Shown: in pieces, positions 5,443 through 38,680 of the stretch
How the letters are laid out: every line of letters starts with the position of its first letter
How positions within the stretch are numbered: position 1 is the stretch's first letter
NCBI GenBank assembly: GCA_048882045.1
Contig: JBHLRZ010000001.1
Span: forward strand, 69,693 to 133,692
From: Candidatus Thorarchaeota archaeon
Lineage (GTDB): Archaea > Asgardarchaeota > Thorarchaeia > Thorarchaeales > Thorarchaeaceae
Reading direction: 5' to 3'
DNA: 64,000 nt
Notes under the pieces: generated by a model
What the model saw: only the letters and a program-made list of their open reading frames with translations
What the model was told of the DNA's origin: nothing
Database searches by the model: none
Translations under genes and position numbers: made by a program

Positions 5443-5800
5443 AATGGCTCTGGAGCAGAAGCGCGACTGACGGTACTCGCTCTTCGGAGCGAGAGCTGAG
5501 GAAACTCCCGACTGCGTGTCGACACCAGTCCTACTGAAGTAGGGAGGCGAGAGCCTCGCTCTGGGAACAGAAACGACACCCCCAAGCTGGATATGACAAT
5601 GATACAGAGATTCAATCTGTTGAGGATCAGTTTGGAACGGTTGAAACGGCCTATCACTGGGCAGCAATCTCAAGAGTAGGCTTGCGATGAGTCGACCTGA
5701 AGCCTAGGGTAGAGAGCATAGTTTGATGTTGCAAGACTCCAGATAGGTAACATTCTGGAGTGGAACAGAATTGGGGTTACTCTCTGGACCAGAGCCACCC
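5443..5800 (+). ncRNA. rnpB: RNase P RNA (type A-like) candidate
   Basis: ~360 nt GC-rich non-coding stretch between cbf5 and tsr3. The 5' P4 strand GAGGAAACUCCCGAC (5497-5511) can pair with the 3' strand ACAGAAUUGGGGUUAC (5766-5781), matching the consensus AGGAAAGUCCGGGC / ACAGAAcCCGGCUUA with the bulged U. P1 is GGCUCUGG (5446-5453) pairing with CCAGAGCC (5789-5796). P3 is a UUCG-tetraloop hairpin, CUCGCUC-UUCG-GAGCGAG. The ORF-track entries 5404..5673 and 5424..5657 (minus) fall inside it and are probably spurious. Confidence 0.65.
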
Positions 5801-10111: not shown

Positions 10112-11002
10112 CTAAGCTTCACTCTCGATGCAAAGCAACTGTTCAACTGGCATATCAGGAACATCTATCTCAAAGAATTCAGATAATACTTGGACAAGTA
10201 TTTTGAGCAGATCCTCTCTGTAAGCCAAATCAATCGCCACCATTGCATGAGAAGATGACCCCATGACCTTGCTGATCGCTGTTGGATCTAGGGAATTGGG
10301 AGTGTCCTGTTTGTTAGCGAATATGACTATGGGCATCTCAGGATGCTCTTCCAGAATTTCGGAGAAGATTGTCTTTGAAGAGATGATATTCTTCAGGGTG
10401 GAGTCAGTTATTAGGAATATCATGTCTGTCAAAGAAAAGTCCCAGAGTTTACCAGCAGCCTCACGTCCCGCAAAGTCGAAAATCACTATATCGTAGTTTG
10501 CGAACTTCATGTCCCTAATGACTTCACAATTTACTGCGATTGTTGGAATATGAGTGTCTGGAGGTTCTATTCCCATCAGAAGATGAAGAAGTGAAGTCTT
10601 TCCGACTCCCAGATTTCCTACTAGAGCAATCACGAATTGAGATTGGACAAAACGCGCAATGATTTGTTCATAGTTCTCCTTTACATATTTCATTGTTTGT
10701 TTTTCCATGATTGAGCGAAGTGAAGTTGCGGCTCGATTTATCTTGCTGATTGTATCATCATCATTGGTGTCGTCATCAACTACAAAGATGATTATTCCTT
10801 TGCCACATTCTCGACTCACGAATTTGTATTCTCCGATAGTGACTGGCTTGTATTTTAAACGCTCAGATTTCTTGATTAACTTCTCAAGTTGTGACAGATA
10901 CTGCTTGATAATCTTCATCGGAATTGAATCCGCCCAATATTCTGATGATGCAATCTTGCGCCTGTTCTTTGCATTCAGCAAGATTGTGCTATATATCATC
11001 AC
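10112..11002 (-). CDS. Ras-superfamily small GTPase with N-terminal ~120-aa longin/roadblock-like extension
   Basis: G1 GNLGVGKTS, switch-I Thr (HIPTIAV), G3 DFAGRE (Ras-like DTAGQE with Gln to Arg), G4 NKQD. The N-terminal region is rich in beta-strands and helices (IIIFVVDDD...). Confidence 0.8.
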   Translation of the reverse strand: MMIYSTILLNAKNRRKIASSEYWADSIPMKIIKQYLSQLEKLIKKSERLKYKPVTIGEYKFVSRECGKGIIIFVVDDDTNDDDTISKINRAATSLRSIMEKQTMKYVKENYEQIIARFVQSQFVIALVGNLGVGKTSLLHLLMGIEPPDTHIPTIAVNCEVIRDMKFANYDIVIFDFAGREAAGKLWDFSLTDMIFLITDSTLKNIISSKTIFSEILEEHPEMPIVIFANKQDTPNSLDPTAISKVMGSSSHAMVAIDLAYREDLLKILVQVLSEFFEIDVPDMPVEQLLCIESEA

Positions 11003-11137: not shown

Positions 11138-11258
11138 GCCGAGGTAGCCAAGCCCGGTTCACGGCGACAGCCTGGAACCAACAGTCGTACGAGCGATTGT
11201 CGCTCAGACAGCTGTTCTCCAATAGGAGGCATGAGTTCAAATCTCATCCTCGGCGCCA
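11138..11258 (+). tRNA. tRNA-Ser(GGA) with 32-nt intron at canonical 37/38 position, CCA encoded
   Basis: Manual fold: acceptor GCCGAGG/CCTCGGC, 3-bp D stem GCC/GGC, anticodon stem ACAGC/GCTGT, loop CUGGAA|intron|A giving anticodon GGA, long variable arm CTCC-AATA-GGAG, T arm ATGAG-TTCAAAT-CTCAT, discriminator G, CCA. Confidence 0.75.
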
Positions 11259-18455: not shown

Positions 18456-19675
18456 GTCTCCGCGAAGTGTATGAGGACCTTCTTGACCCTCTCAAAGTCC
18501 TCTAAATGCATGAACTCATCAAGTCCATGATAGTTGTTGTCATCTCGTAGTGTGCCATAGCAGACTGTTGGAATCCCGTGGGATGTGAAATAGTGACCAT
18601 CATTCCCTCCGAGGTCCGCTGCGATGGTTATGTTTGGGTCATCAACCTCCTTGACCGCTTCGTGGAATGCAACGACATACTTATTCTTAGGATCAGAACC
18701 CCAGCCGGCATGTTTCGTTTTGAAATCAAGTGTGGCATCAACCCAAGTTTCTTCCTTTGCTTTCTCGAAGAATGCCTCTATGTCATTGGCAACTTCTTCG
18801 ACATCTTCCTCTGGGATGGTCCTGCAGTCAAAAGATATCTCAGCTTTTCCAGGGATTGTGTTAGTCTTACTTCCTGCATTATAGACGGTCATTGAGAATC
18901 GGCCCCAAAGGGTCTGGTGCGGGCTGCCAGGTGGTGCTGGTAGTTTGGACTCTACCTTTCTACGTACATCAATATAATCTAGCATGACCTGCATCAGAGG
19001 AATAGAGAGATGGATTGCGTTTGCAAACTTGAACGGATACCCAGCATGCCCCTGTGTGCCTCTAACGGTTATTGTACCTGCAATGACTCCACTTGCACCA
19101 TTACTAACATATTCGGGTCCAGAGTCAACAACTATTCCAAAATCACCACGGATCTTTGGAGGACCATTCATGAGATAATCAATTCCATTGACCCCTCCAA
19201 TCTCCTCATTTGGGCTAATTAGGATCTTCCAGTTGACCTTTGAGCTACCCTTTTTGATGAGTTCCTTTGCAGAACTGACAGCAGCAACAATGTTCCCTTT
19301 ATTGTCGCTGACACCTCGACCGTATGCTTTGTCTTTCTCTAGTGTAAGCTCGAAGGGGGGGTTCTTCCACTCATCCACTTCGCCTGCTGGAACGACATCG
19401 TAATGCGTGCAGAGAAGGACTGTTGTCTTTGCACCTACATCCATGTTAGCAACAATGTTCGGTTGTGGGATTCCATCATGTAATGAATCAAAGACCTCGA
19501 CTCTGAGACCAGCCTCCTCACAGTACTTCTTAATGATTTCAGCGCAGACTGCATAGTTCTTCTTTTCATCACTGTTTGTGTCAAGCTCGACTATTTCTGT
19601 GAGAAATTCAGTTTCCCATTTGTCCATCTCAATACATCTCCAACGGGGCATGTGTGTAGAGCTTACCTCACTCAT
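18446..19675 (-). CDS. M20 family metallopeptidase (ArgE/DapE-like deacylase)
   Basis: LLCTHYDVVPAG, GRGVSDNKGN metal-binding motifs. Confidence 0.8.
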   Translation of the reverse strand: MSEVSSTHMPRWRCIEMDKWETEFLTEIVELDTNSDEKKNYAVCAEIIKKYCEEAGLRVEVFDSLHDGIPQPNIVANMDVGAKTTVLLCTHYDVVPAGEVDEWKNPPFELTLEKDKAYGRGVSDNKGNIVAAVSSAKELIKKGSSKVNWKILISPNEEIGGVNGIDYLMNGPPKIRGDFGIVVDSGPEYVSNGASGVIAGTITVRGTQGHAGYPFKFANAIHLSIPLMQVMLDYIDVRRKVESKLPAPPGSPHQTLWGRFSMTVYNAGSKTNTIPGKAEISFDCRTIPEEDVEEVANDIEAFFEKAKEETWVDATLDFKTKHAGWGSDPKNKYVVAFHEAVKEVDDPNITIAADLGGNDGHYFTSHGIPTVCYGTLRDDNNYHGLDEFMHLEDFERVKKVLIHFAETCK

Positions 19676-21315: not shown

Positions 21316-21909
21316 ATGGAGCCGACAGTTTATCACATACAAAAAGGCCGCCTCGTGAAGATGAAAGATCCAGGTGCTTTCGGTCGTGGCGACTGCTATC
21401 TCGTAGATGCAGGCATGAAGATCTATCTATGGATTGGTCCAAACTCTAGTGTTGACGAGAAGTTCCTCACTGCTGCTTCTGCAGTCATGAGAGACACCGC
21501 GCGAGAAGGCAAAGCTGACATCGATAGAATCGAGGGAGGAAATGAGCCAGAAGAGTTCAAGGCACTCTTTGATGACTTCAGTCTTACTGATGAAGACACA
21601 GAGGGCATTCTCAAGAAGGTTCAGTTAGAAACACGTGAACACAAACTTTGGCGCGTGCATCGTGAGGCGGATGAAACATTCTTCAAAGAGGTTGATCTTG
21701 ACAGAGCTTCACTGAAGAGTGACGACGTCTTCATACTCGACACGTTTGACGACATCTATGTTTGGCGAGGTAAGGATGCCACTGCACGAGAGAAGTTTGA
21801 TGCAACCATCCTTGCAAGGAGATATGATGCAGAACGTGTGGGGGTTCAGGAAATCGAACTGATTGAGGAAGGAAGCGAACCAGACGAGTTCTTCAAATCT
21901 TTCCCATGA
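21316..21909 (+). CDS. Two-domain gelsolin (2DGel-type actin-regulating protein)
   Basis: Two gelsolin-like repeats (DCYLVDAG-KIYLWIGPNSS...EF and DVFILDTFDDIYVWRGKDA...EF), 197 aa. Matches the Asgard gelsolin architecture. Confidence 0.8.
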   Translation: MEPTVYHIQKGRLVKMKDPGAFGRGDCYLVDAGMKIYLWIGPNSSVDEKFLTAASAVMRDTAREGKADIDRIEGGNEPEEFKALFDDFSLTDEDTEGILKKVQLETREHKLWRVHREADETFFKEVDLDRASLKSDDVFILDTFDDIYVWRGKDATAREKFDATILARRYDAERVGVQEIELIEEGSEPDEFFKSFP

Positions 21910-32403: not shown

Positions 32404-34032
32404 ATGAAGCATGGACATTCTGAATTAGAGCTGTATCACTTATCCAACGTCTTAATAACCGGTTTTGAGATAAGACATGAAGTGATTCAATTGCAAAGAC
32501 ACAAATTCGGAATTCTACTCTTACTTGTCCTTTTAAGTCCGATTCCAACAGTTTTCGTTGGCAATACAACACCTGATGTTTCTACATTTCAAATCAATAC
32601 ACCAGCTAATGGAGTTAATCCGTTCGATAGAGGTCCTATGGTCGGAATGGTGACCAATGAATCAGCGGTTATATTCTGGCGAACAAATGTAACTACTAAT
32701 GCAACACTCAGGTATGGACTAAACGCTTCAGTGTTATCAAGTATGGATAACACGACACTTGACACAGATCATTATTTCCACCTGACTGGACTCGACATTG
32801 ATACTAAGTATTACTACCAAGCAGTGTCAAATGGTACAGAGAGCCCTGTCTATCATTTCCTTACAGCTCCGCCTGATGGAGAGGAATTTAAGATGATCGT
32901 CGTGGGAGATAACAGGCCACGTACAGAAATCACCCAACCACCTGAGTGGGAACAGATTGCTCAAATGATAGCAGATGAACAGCCGCATATTGTCATTGCA
33001 ACCGGTGACTATGTCAGGGACGTAGAAGAAAACGTTGAAGACAATCTTGTTGCCTGGAACTATTTCACTGAGATAAATGACCTGATTGGTCATTATGCTC
33101 CAATATACGCTGCAATTGGGAACCATGACAAAGCAAGAGGCGGTGGTCCGCTGCATTTGGAATACTTCTTTGACGCATTTGTCCAATATGGTGAACCTTC
33201 ACCATACTACTCATTTGATTATGCAGGTGTGCACTTCACTTTCTTGATGACCTATGAGCTTGGATTGGAATTGAAAATAGTTGGAGATCAACTCGCATGG
33301 CTTGAGAATGATCTAGCAACCACGAATAAAACGATGAAGTTTGTAGTTGCACATGCTCCTTTATACCCAGTAGTGCATATTGATGATTCTCTCAATATTT
33401 ATCCAGAGGAGAGAAATGCGCTACAGGCACTATTCGAAGAGTACAATGTTTCACTATATCTATGTGGACATGACCATCTGTACGATAGACTTACAGTTAA
33501 TGGATTAACTCAGGTCATTTCTGGAGGAGGAGGAGCTCCTCTGTATGACCATCCATTCTGGGGTGGAGGGTACCATCACTATACGAGGTCATTTGTGAGT
33601 GCAAGCCACATAAACATCTCATCAATCAAATTAGATGGTTCAGTAGGTAATTATTACGAATTGCCCTATGATGGCCCAATCGAGATCAGACATCGTATTT
33701 ATCCAAGTGGAAGCACACATCCTGTTGGAACTTTGCCAGTTATCTACTTCAGTGAAGTTCCTGTTGAGAAGTACTTCTCATGGGATTCAGGGGAGAACCA
33801 GACCGAGTTGACAGGAATTCCAAACGCTGATGGGAACCATACGTTGGATGTCTATGCTGTAAACGATGAAGGAGTATGGACGCATGAGGCATTCTTCTGG
33901 GTAGCAACAGGTGCAACGACACCAACACCCACAGTTACAGGAGGCGCAATTGATCCGCTCCTCATCATTGGTGGCGTGGCAGTTGCAGGCGTAGTAGTTG
34001 TTGTTGCAGTATTTTGGTTCAGAAAAAAGTAG
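32404..34032 (+). CDS. Secreted calcineurin-like metallophosphatase (purple acid phosphatase-like) with C-terminal TM anchor
   Basis: GDNRP, GDYV, GNHD, GHDH motifs. Signal peptide KFGILLLLVLLSPIPTVFVG (likely GTG start at 32482). Thr/Pro linker and C-terminal TM plus RKK. Confidence 0.75.
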   Translation: MKHGHSELELYHLSNVLITGFEIRHEVIQLQRHKFGILLLLVLLSPIPTVFVGNTTPDVSTFQINTPANGVNPFDRGPMVGMVTNESAVIFWRTNVTTNATLRYGLNASVLSSMDNTTLDTDHYFHLTGLDIDTKYYYQAVSNGTESPVYHFLTAPPDGEEFKMIVVGDNRPRTEITQPPEWEQIAQMIADEQPHIVIATGDYVRDVEENVEDNLVAWNYFTEINDLIGHYAPIYAAIGNHDKARGGGPLHLEYFFDAFVQYGEPSPYYSFDYAGVHFTFLMTYELGLELKIVGDQLAWLENDLATTNKTMKFVVAHAPLYPVVHIDDSLNIYPEERNALQALFEEYNVSLYLCGHDHLYDRLTVNGLTQVISGGGGAPLYDHPFWGGGYHHYTRSFVSASHINISSIKLDGSVGNYYELPYDGPIEIRHRIYPSGSTHPVGTLPVIYFSEVPVEKYFSWDSGENQTELTGIPNADGNHTLDVYAVNDEGVWTHEAFFWVATGATTPTPTVTGGAIDPLLIIGGVAVAGVVVVVAVFWFRKK

Positions 34033-36778: not shown

Positions 36779-37066
36779 ATGAAATATATCGTATTCTGGG
36801 AGTATGAACCAAAGGAGATTGACCAAGCTGTCAAGAAACTTGTAGCGTTTAGAGATATGATTAAGAAAGACCCTGACAAATATGCAAAACCCGTTACACC
36901 CAATTACACTATGAGTGTCGGATTCAAGGGATTTCAACTGTTTGAAGCCACAGACCCTGAACAGCTTGCACGAATGGTGCTTCATTACAGACCAGAAGTG
37001 AAGTTTGAGATTGTGCACATCACTGAAACAAAGAAGACAATGAAAATCTACGATGAGTCAAAATAG
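36779..37066 (+). CDS. Small conserved protein (DUF3303-like), hypothetical
   Basis: 95 aa, GAGGTGA RBS-like element 7 nt upstream, no recognised motif. Confidence 0.4.
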   Translation: MKYIVFWEYEPKEIDQAVKKLVAFRDMIKKDPDKYAKPVTPNYTMSVGFKGFQLFEATDPEQLARMVLHYRPEVKFEIVHITETKKTMKIYDESK

Positions 37067-37294
37067 TGATTTCTTCTAGATTAGAGTTAATCCAACCGAC
37101 TGGGCATTAGAGCCCTTCCTCAGAAACCAGTAGTAACTCAAACAATTAGTTTCTTTTTAACGAGAGCAAGAAAGAATCCTCAAAATCCATCTTCGAATAT
37201 GATTCCGAACCTCTTCAGACTTTGAAATTTAACGGAAATAAAAACAAGAGAGCGAAGGGGGCACTAAGCCCACCTTCGTTGAACTATGTATATA

Positions 37295-38434
37295 CTAGAT
37301 ACAGCGGTGTATCACTTCGGGTCCTACTTCCTCGAACTCCTTCTTGGACACCCACATCTTCTGGAATGTCTTGAGTGAGCCGAGAATGCTTCCACCAATC
37401 CAGACAGAGTACTGCCTCTCGGGTGGAGCGATGATTCGGACCTCGATGTTCTCTGGGACTAGCTCGGTGATCTCCTTGTGGAGTCTCTCCTTGAGTCCTG
37501 GGAACATGGTTGAACCGCCTGAGAGCACAATGTTGGCGTATAGGTCACGTCTCAGGTCAACGTCACAAGCCTTGATTGACTCGACAATGTGGTCATCGAG
37601 TGGCATGGTGTCTAGACCAATGCCGCTTGGGTTGAAGAACAGCTCGGGTGCCTGGAACCTCTCTGCACCAATTGTGATTACCTCACCATCTGGTAACATG
37701 TAGGGCTTGTCAACACCTGCCTTGTCGGCAACTGTCCTTTCCCTCTCGGGATCAAGAGCAACGTAACATAGCTTCTCTTTGATATCTCTGACAATCTCTT
37801 TTTCTGCACCGCTTACAAATGAGTAGCCAGCCTGCCTGAGCAGTCTGCGCAGATACTCGGTGATGTCCCTACCAGCAAGGTCAATTCTTCGAATGGCGTG
37901 GTTGATTGAAAAGCCCTCATAGATTGGTACTATGTGGGTAACACCGTCGCCTGAGTCAATGACCAGACCAGTGGTCCTTCCGGATGCGTACAATGAGAGT
38001 ACGGCCTGCGTGGCAACGTACACTGCTGGTACACCAAAGTTGTCGAACATGACAGATGCCATGCGCTCTCTGTTTTCTCTAGGGTTGAATGGGGCTTCCG
38101 TAAGAAGAACTGGATTCTCGCTAGGATCTACCTTCAAGTCGTTGTAGAATGTGTAGCTCCAAATCTTCTCGATAGCGTCCCAGTCTTCCACCTTACCATG
38201 AGCGATTGGGTAGACCAGACGGAGTACACCACGAAGGTTGATTGCCTCTTCACCAATGTAGTAGTCACGTGTATAGTGATCCACGTCGGTCATGATTGAC
38301 TCGTAACGTGGGTAACCAATCAGTGTGGGCCAAACGCTGCGTGGCTGATCTTCGCCGGCGTAACCGTTCTTGCTCAAACCTGTACCATTGTCGATGACAA
38401 TGGGTTTTGCGCCAAGAAACTCGTCTTCAGCCAT
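37295..38434 (-). CDS. Actin (Asgard/eukaryote-like actin)
   Basis: [72 protein letters not shown]. Near-identity to eukaryotic actin signature blocks across 379 aa. Confidence 0.9.
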
Positions 38435-38680
38435 TTTCTATCGGTCCTCGTTTGTGATTAGTTCAAAGTCCTTGAGACCTTGTTCTAACATTTTGTTGAT
38501 GCTTATTCTATTTAAGGATACGTCCGTCAAACTCGGATTTTTTCGAAAAGTATTTGAATTATATATATAATGCCGTGTTTTTGGTCCATTTTTTGAGGTT
38601 CTCACGGCAATACCTTCGATAAGTATAAAAGGTTAATACTCGTAATTACTAGCTAATACATCCGCGGGTCGTGTCAAAGG
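38435..38680. promoter_or_regulatory. AT-rich divergent intergenic region with TATA-like boxes
   Basis: TATTTGAATTATATATATAATG and GATAAGTATAAAAGG lie between the divergent actin gene and the 38681 gene. Confidence 0.35.

Follow-up and report, generated by a model that had tools for sequence, protein, structure and literature searches.

The window analyzed here, 64,000 nucleotides (nt) from a Candidatus Thorarchaeota archaeon (contig JBHLRZ010000001.1, positions 69,693 to 133,692), carries on its minus strand, at 37295..38434, a gene for a 379-residue actin of the Lokiactin type, whose ATG is the first start codon past an in-frame stop and whose product belongs to the Pfam family Actin. The gene lies between two plus-strand neighbors, a convergent DUF3303 gene (36779..37066) and a divergent gene (38681..39454) for a protein with an N-terminal winged helix and a C-terminal CARF domain; since both are on the opposite strand, actin is monocistronic by arrangement, as the original prediction for this locus had stated. 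Lokiactin is the conventional actin of every Asgard class and the nearest prokaryotic relative of eukaryotic actin; the family has been described since 2015–2017, and the Lokiactin of Asgard archaea was reportedly described by Spang in 2015. The exact protein encoded in the window is deposited as MFW9810940.1, "actin, cytoplasmic 2 [Candidatus Thorarchaeota archaeon]," and is encoded on JBHLRH010000002.1 (151,747 bp; assembly GCA_048882745.1), of which the window is positions 18582..82581. The actin gene is already known: deposited, annotated, and ordinary.

Family Assignment and Conserved Residues

Residues 10–377 of the product match positions 5–407 of the 410 in PF00022 at 440.2 bits (E 7.8e-132; cutoff 27), a score that places the motif blocks of the protein far beyond chance. 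A 379-residue product with the diagnostic actin blocks had been predicted from the DNA, and every block quoted was located: DNGTG at residue 15, GGSTMFPGL at residue 306, RLHKE at residue 317, and the others at residues 111, 160, and 219. In a search of PDB sequences the best match was HC1 actin (9wc4, 622 bits), and the following 59 were eukaryotic actins at 517–530 bits. BLASTP gave identities of 68.6% to HC1 actin (370 residues), 61.3% to yeast actin, and 59.4% to human beta-actin; crenactin (4cj7) aligned at 22.7% identity with 52 bits, and MreB of T. maritima (1jce) at 22% across 171 residues with an E-value of 0.1. The human ACTB sequence used in these comparisons was entered by hand, the yeast and HC1 rows were taken from the PDB search output, and 4cj7 and 1jce were checked against the PDB. 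The protein is closer to eukaryotic actin than to crenactin or MreB, as had been claimed, with 59–61% identity to the former vs. about 22% to the latter.

Alignment to ACTB, yeast actin, and HC1 actin showed that D11, G13, G15, K18, H73, Q137, D154, G156, D157, G158, V159, H161, K213, E214, G301, G302, and M305 are identical to actin. The sole changes in the nucleotide site (S14T, T303S, Y306F, and K336Q) are all conservative; the nucleotide-binding residues have not been lost, and the phosphate-1, phosphate-2, and adenosine motifs are kept together with Q137 and H161. In the target-binding cleft used by profilin, gelsolin, and cofilin, 11 of the 12 residues checked are identical (Y143, A144, G146, T148, G168, I341, I345, L346, L349, T351, and M355), the remaining one being a change of Y169 to F. 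The D-loop has a 2-residue insertion that is common to HC1 actin. Two peptides used to raise antibodies against Lokiactin (PMC9834061) match the window actin, by inspection, at 12/15 and 13/15 residues.

Distribution and Phylogeny

A search of species-representative genomes returned 371 loci with actin relatives, and the results given here are from the best 80 of the 371. Metagenome-assembled genomes (MAGs) of Thorarchaeota, the founding genomes SMTZ1-45 and AB_25 among them, dominate these 80 loci; more than 60 have actins 89–98% identical to that of the window in the same gene order. Actins of the other Asgard classes (Jord, Freya, Hel, Loki, Heimdall, Hod, Njord, and Atabey) are 72–80% identical to the window actin, and those of eukaryotes 57–59%. 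A phylogeny with Asgard actins, which had been proposed as a check, was built by neighbor joining; it places the window protein with the Thorarchaeota actins at 100% bootstrap, in an Asgard group apart from eukaryotic actins, with crenactin and MreB far outside the actins. In nine Thorarchaeota loci the aligned length is 389 or 399 residues rather than 379, which implies an insertion of 10–20 residues in actins that are otherwise 91–93% identical.

Lokiactin is the most conserved actin homolog of Asgard archaea and occurs in every class; its sister group is eukaryotic actin together with most actin-related proteins (ARPs), and it makes the filaments observed in Ca. L. ossiferum (PMC9834061); actin filaments have also been observed in Hodarchaeales strains and cultures (bioRxiv 10.1101/2025.02.26.640444). 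On the evidence of sequence, the window gene is very probably an intact Thorarchaeota ortholog of Lokiactin.

Alternative Interpretations

Asgard genomes hold several actin-family genes; Ca. L. ossiferum has four actin homologs, three of them ARP-like (PMC9834061), and the protein could be an ARP paralog instead of the conventional Lokiactin ortholog, the more so as the neighbor-joining tree contained no ARPs. An ARP is nonetheless very unlikely, given that every other Asgard class has a single, highly conserved actin to which the protein is 72–80% identical, that its 60 best PDB matches are without exception bona fide actins (517 bits or more), that the Lokiactin-specific peptides match it at 12/15 and 13/15 residues, and that, at 379 residues vs. 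375 for actin, it carries no ARP-type insertions. Contamination with eukaryotic DNA, chimerism of the assembly, or a recent transfer of the gene from a eukaryote might be invoked because prokaryotic genes seldom show an identity to eukaryotic actin as high as about 60% and because the G+C content at third codon positions (GC3) of the actin gene is atypical within the window. Synteny refutes this reading, which we regard as exceedingly improbable: the gene and its upstream neighbors recur in more than 60 independent Thorarchaeota MAGs and on 31 metagenome contigs, and the contig that carries it is 151.7 kb of archaeal genes. The gene is also free of introns and has a Shine-Dalgarno site and an archaeal TATA box, and its product is equidistant (58–61%) from animals, fungi, and plants; the even identity to fluke, chytrid, fish, and potato actins (58.3–58.9%) disfavors recent transfer from any one eukaryotic lineage. 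The surroundings in the window are archaeal housekeeping genes (SecY, eL14, S13/S4/S11, Cbf5, TiaS, KEOPS subunits, prefoldin, exosome RNase PH, and RNase P RNA). A prokaryotic actin of the crenactin or MreB type, finally, is already refuted and has a negligible probability. There are weak matches, attributable to the shared fold, to Pfam MreB_Mbl (24.9 bits) and to the NCBIfam equivalogs for crenactin, MamK, and BeeR (37–44 bits; 44.2 bits for the crenactin model NF053560), but all of them are under the curated cutoffs (27, 630, 400, and 530, respectively), the last three far under, and the identity to 4cj7 and the E-value against 1jce given above point the same way. The BLASTP and profile checks that had been proposed accordingly find actins as the best matches.

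Several points nevertheless weigh against reading the protein as a conventional, functional Lokiactin. Either K336Q or the D-loop insertion could alter nucleotide or filament contacts. The predicted structure, made with a shallow alignment, is poor (predicted local distance difference test score, pLDDT, of 35), and the actin fold therefore rests on the 60–69% identity to solved actins. The neighbor-joining tree is a rough distance method that yielded no deep-node support and left out ARPs, so the separation from ARPs is indirect. Among 13 window proteins that match no Pfam family, neither a profilin nor any other relative of solved structure was found by sequence, apart from eL14 and a Brix protein. 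Attempts to express a Thorarchaeota actin were unsuccessful in one biochemical study (PMC7444086); Thorarchaeota actin has for that reason not been studied biochemically, and filament formation and control by gelsolin or profilin in Thorarchaeota are inferred from homology.

Predicted Promoter and Leader, and Codon Use

The original prediction gave the actin gene its own AT-rich promoter. A conserved TATA box (TTAAATA, minus strand, 38515..38509) does lie 81 nt upstream of the ATG and is kept in most Thorarchaeota loci, whereas a stretch farther upstream (TTATATATATAA, 38570..38559) is not that element. Across 55 usable sequences, (C/G)CTTAAATA is found 81–114 nt ahead of the start in most Thorarchaeota loci. 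Transcription is inferred to start about 25 nt past the TATA box, which would give a leader of about 50 nt. A Shine-Dalgarno-like GAGGAC (38444..38449, minus strand) stands 10–15 nt ahead of the ATG, and GAGGACCGA is nearly invariant at that distance from the start in 63 Thorarchaeota upstream regions.

In the predicted leader, between the TATA box and the Shine-Dalgarno sequence, RNAalifold gave a consensus hairpin with a 7-bp stem (38464..38482, minus strand), in which 5/7 pairs show compensatory changes and 94% of the alignment cells are paired; 0/500 shuffles reach the observed values, and slid controls are at most 52% paired. The alignment comprised 26 Thorarchaeota sequences hand-picked among those that could be aligned, a choice that favors the result. 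Rfam gave no match in the flanks of the actin gene. With a GC3 of 0.57 and a third-position C content of 0.36 (median 0.20), the actin gene ranks first among 67 window genes in both measures, which would be consistent with high expression; its overall G+C content is about 0.50, vs. 0.38–0.45 in the flanks.

The 3′ Hairpin and a Probable Termination Signal

The hairpin that had been noted just downstream of the gene, near 37250, is real. It begins 17 nt past the stop codon and occupies 37253..37278 on the minus strand as a 10-bp stem with one bulged T and a 5-nt loop; read on the coding strand from 37278 to 37253 it is CGAAGG(T)GGGC-TTAGT-GCCCCCTTCG, followed by CTCTCTTG. A 76-nt fold at this position has a minimum free energy (MFE) of −19.2 kcal/mol and a z of −3.58 against dinucleotide shuffles, and the hairpin is third in stability among 63 gene 3′ ends in the window. 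Directly behind it, a pyrimidine-rich tract can be read at 37236..37252 with a T5 run at 37244..37240, which is likely an archaeal termination signal. Termination in archaea requires a T-run alone.

All 61 Thorarchaeota loci have a hairpin at this position, with stems of 6–15 bp that differ in sequence (for example GAAGAGGGA/TCCCTCTTC, GAAGAGCG/CGCTCTTC, and GACAGGAG/CTCCTGTC), and in nearly all of these loci a C/T-rich tract and a T-run follow it. The median z is −3.7 in Thorarchaeota vs. −0.2 in 15 other Asgard loci, which carry T-runs only. The downstream neighbors differ among loci while the hairpin persists, which assigns it to the actin gene. This evidence consists of per-sequence folds and shuffles, with no covariance model; MAFFT and RNAalifold over the hairpins of 60 loci gave no consensus because the bulges shift the register. 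A bacterial-type intrinsic terminator would have a G+C-rich stem with a T-run directly behind it; the stem here is G+C-rich, but the T5 run starts 8 nt behind it, which is why a scan with a terminator consensus made no call; the sigma-70 promoter and terminator scan is in any case not applicable to archaea. A strong hairpin (MFE −19.9, z −4.8) with a T-run behind it also closes the metallophosphatase gene (32491..34032, plus strand), so the combination of hairpin and T-run is not unique to actin, although it is rare (3–4 of 63 gene ends).

The Divergent CARF Gene and Its Probable Operon

The divergent gene (38681..39454) encodes 257 residues, is labeled "hypothetical protein" in GenBank, and has no Pfam match of its own. 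The PADLOC profile CARF_m5 matches 17/17 members of its family that were tested (best E 4e-71; window protein 7e-20), and the family is therefore already cataloged as a CARF family; the window protein also fits the Rossmann-like fold of CARF domains. The sole ligand-related feature seen is a DxT/SxG motif past strand 4, and binding of a nucleotide or cyclic oligoadenylate is putative. The family is small: a set of 1.84 billion proteins yields 60 representatives at E ≤ 0.001. Its linkage to actin ends at about E 1e-20, since the CARF_m5-like representatives beyond that point (E 1e-10 to 1e-12) have no actin gene beside them.

CARF homologs are divergent beside actin in 70/80 of the actin-seeded loci, and most of the others have no upstream sequence. 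A metagenome scan seeded with a Thorarchaeota-only alignment of the neighbor found actin in 31/32 of the loci that had 700 nt or more upstream, the exception having 709 nt. The pairing extends over at least six Asgard actin lineages, with neighbor identity down to 22–26%; it is divergent in Thorarchaeota, a sister lineage of Thorarchaeota, Jord/Freya, the lineage of loci L077/78, Atabey, Njord (L089), and the L128 lineage, whose actin is 64.5% identical to that of the window, and in Loki/Hel-type genomes (L088, L132) the CARF gene is upstream of actin on the same strand. No CARF gene was found within 5 kb of actin in the Heimdallarchaeum and Hodarchaeota loci examined.

Only 13 nt past the CARF gene is a gene for a 231-residue RNase III-domain protein (39468..40163, plus strand; Pfam Ribonuclease_3, 51 bits), which has a 120-residue N-terminal extension and no double-stranded RNA-binding domain by Pfam. 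RNase III is uncommon in archaea. Its gene follows that of the CARF protein in 37/38 Thorarchaeota metagenome loci, and the two probably form one operon.

As elsewhere in Thorarchaeota group 1, the region between actin and the CARF gene (38435..38680) contains two copies of ATACTTwTCGAA, a motif conserved in 21 intergenic regions of that group. Box 2 (AATACTTTTCGAAAAAA, 38538..38554, minus strand), a candidate regulator site, stands upstream of the actin TATA box at a distance of about 32 nt; box 1 (TATACTTATCGAAGG, 38613..38627, minus strand) is the second copy, on the regulator side. When the intergenic regions of lineages other than group 1 were searched for operator-like repeats and palindromes, nothing consistent emerged, which confines the operator idea to Thorarchaeota group 1. 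Directly ahead of the regulator ATG in the same region is a conserved CGCGGATrTATTAGCTAGTAAT, which may be the TATA box of the regulator and would then imply a leaderless transcript.

Dedicated regulators are typically recognized by a transcription-factor gene that stays beside a single target over deep divergence, and control of actin was considered on these grounds. That the CARF protein controls actin transcription is proposed tentatively, as a real possibility rather than a probability; in many Asgard archaea, a transcription factor that senses a ligand may be dedicated to the actin gene. The identity of the CARF ligand, the binding sites, and an action of RNase III on the actin hairpins are matters of speculation. 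The literature search found no paper that names CARF_m5 or ties CARF to actin.

Farther out on the same side, a block at 40150..43824 is conserved upstream of actin throughout Thorarchaeota and encodes an HD-domain protein (504 residues), a Cys-rich protein (181 residues), a beta-propeller with BBS7/BBS2/FG-GAP-like matches (337 residues), and a 139-residue protein, homologs of which (30–35% identical) are near actin in three Atabeyarchaeia-type loci.

Cytoskeletal Companions and Other Features of the Window

The original prediction had set the actin beside a gelsolin and a small GTPase as an Asgard-type, eukaryote-like cytoskeletal inventory, and both companions were recovered. A gene at 21316..21909 (plus strand) encodes a two-domain gelsolin with two Pfam Gelsolin repeats (104 bits) that matches PDB 7c2h at 385 bits and is the window ortholog of 2DGel3, the Thorarchaeota gelsolin that was crystallized on rabbit actin (PDB 7c2h; PMC7444086). 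Gelsolin and actin are 15 kb apart in the window; in five other Thorarchaeota loci a gelsolin 71–84% identical to the window protein is 1.5–2.6 kb downstream of actin, on the opposite strand. An Arf/Ras/Roc-like small GTPase is encoded at 10112..10999 (minus strand), with matches to Pfam Arf (58 bits), Roc (39 bits), and Ras (33 bits) over residues 120–249 and an N-terminal extension of about 110 residues that matches no family. Elsewhere, the window contains an archaeal RNase P RNA (5451..5791, plus strand; 167 bits) and a 118-nt Rfam tRNA match (11138..11255, plus strand), for which ARAGORN makes no call and which probably represents a tRNA gene with an intron and an encoded CCA end.

Comparison with Known Systems

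The window actin and the Lokiactins of Ca. L. ossiferum and other Asgard archaea belong to one orthologous family, with a length of about 379 residues, the same motifs, and 72–75% identity to Loki/Hel-type actins; the window protein represents the Thorarchaeota branch, and gene context varies among classes. Filaments of Lokiactin have been imaged; no Thorarchaeota actin is known to have been purified or imaged. HC1 actin, from Hodarchaeales strain HC1, shares with it 68.6% identity, the 2-residue D-loop insertion, DNGTGLSK, and a further block of 16 residues, and the 7 chains of PDB 9wc4 suggest that HC1 actin forms F-actin-like filaments; it comes, however, from another Asgard class, its N-terminus is unlike that of the window protein, and position 336 is R in HC1, Q in the window, and K in eukaryotes. 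Compared with eukaryotic actin (yeast Act1 and human ACTB; 59–61% identity), the ATP site, His73, Gln137, and the subdomain 1/3 cleft are kept, but the D-loop is 2 residues longer, the hydrophobic plug (FQPSFLGMESCGI in eukaryotic actin) is divergent, the eukaryotic-type acidic N-terminal tag is absent, and the gene structure is prokaryotic. Crenactin of Pyrobaculum calidifontis (4cj7) and MreB of T. maritima (1jce) have the actin-fold ATPase superfamily in common with the window actin and only about 22% identity.

The nearest comparison for the divergent neighbor is Csa3, a CRISPR factor that also combines CARF and winged-helix domains. The domain order is opposite, the neighbor having its winged helix at the N-terminus (residues 1 to about 106) and CARF at the C-terminus; Csa3 is found in cas loci, whereas the neighbor adjoins actin and matches the separate profile CARF_m5; and, relative to Csa3, the basic residue after the glycine is lost in the Thorarchaeota members of the family. 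Gene calls spanning about 60 kb of the window include no cas family, and the neighbor does not classify as a Csa3-type protein.

Proposed Function and Significance

The phosphate-1, phosphate-2, and adenosine motifs form the cleft in which, by homology, the window actin would bind and hydrolyze ATP. The protein may polymerize into F-actin-like filaments of two twisted strands, which would serve as a scaffold for the cell body and its protrusions. Profilins and gelsolins would regulate it by docking in the hydrophobic subdomain 1/3 cleft, the 2DGel3 ortholog being a candidate for one such gelsolin regulator. The gene would be transcribed alone from the conserved TATA-box promoter; its transcript would start with a leader of about 50 nt that is structured and bears a strong Shine-Dalgarno site, and would end at the conserved hairpin and T-run.

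Asgard actins are a cornerstone of the account in which eukaryotes originated from archaea. The finding of an actin in this window adds nothing new in itself, as the exact protein is correctly named in GenBank, although it marks the window as Thorarchaeota, and the occurrence of the actin together with a characterized type of gelsolin is confirmed within one genome. The conserved regulatory surroundings of the gene appear to be undescribed in the literature, and the parts worth pursuing are only the CARF/RNase III neighbor and the conserved structures in the untranslated regions. The conserved promoter, leader, and terminator provide concrete sequences for experiments, perhaps for the expression of Thorarchaeota actin. 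If control by the CARF protein is true, an archaeal actin cytoskeleton would gain its first described regulatory input, and a CARF sensor would be at work outside CRISPR defense; actin expression in these archaea would then answer to a nucleotide second messenger, transcriptionally and perhaps via RNA processing.

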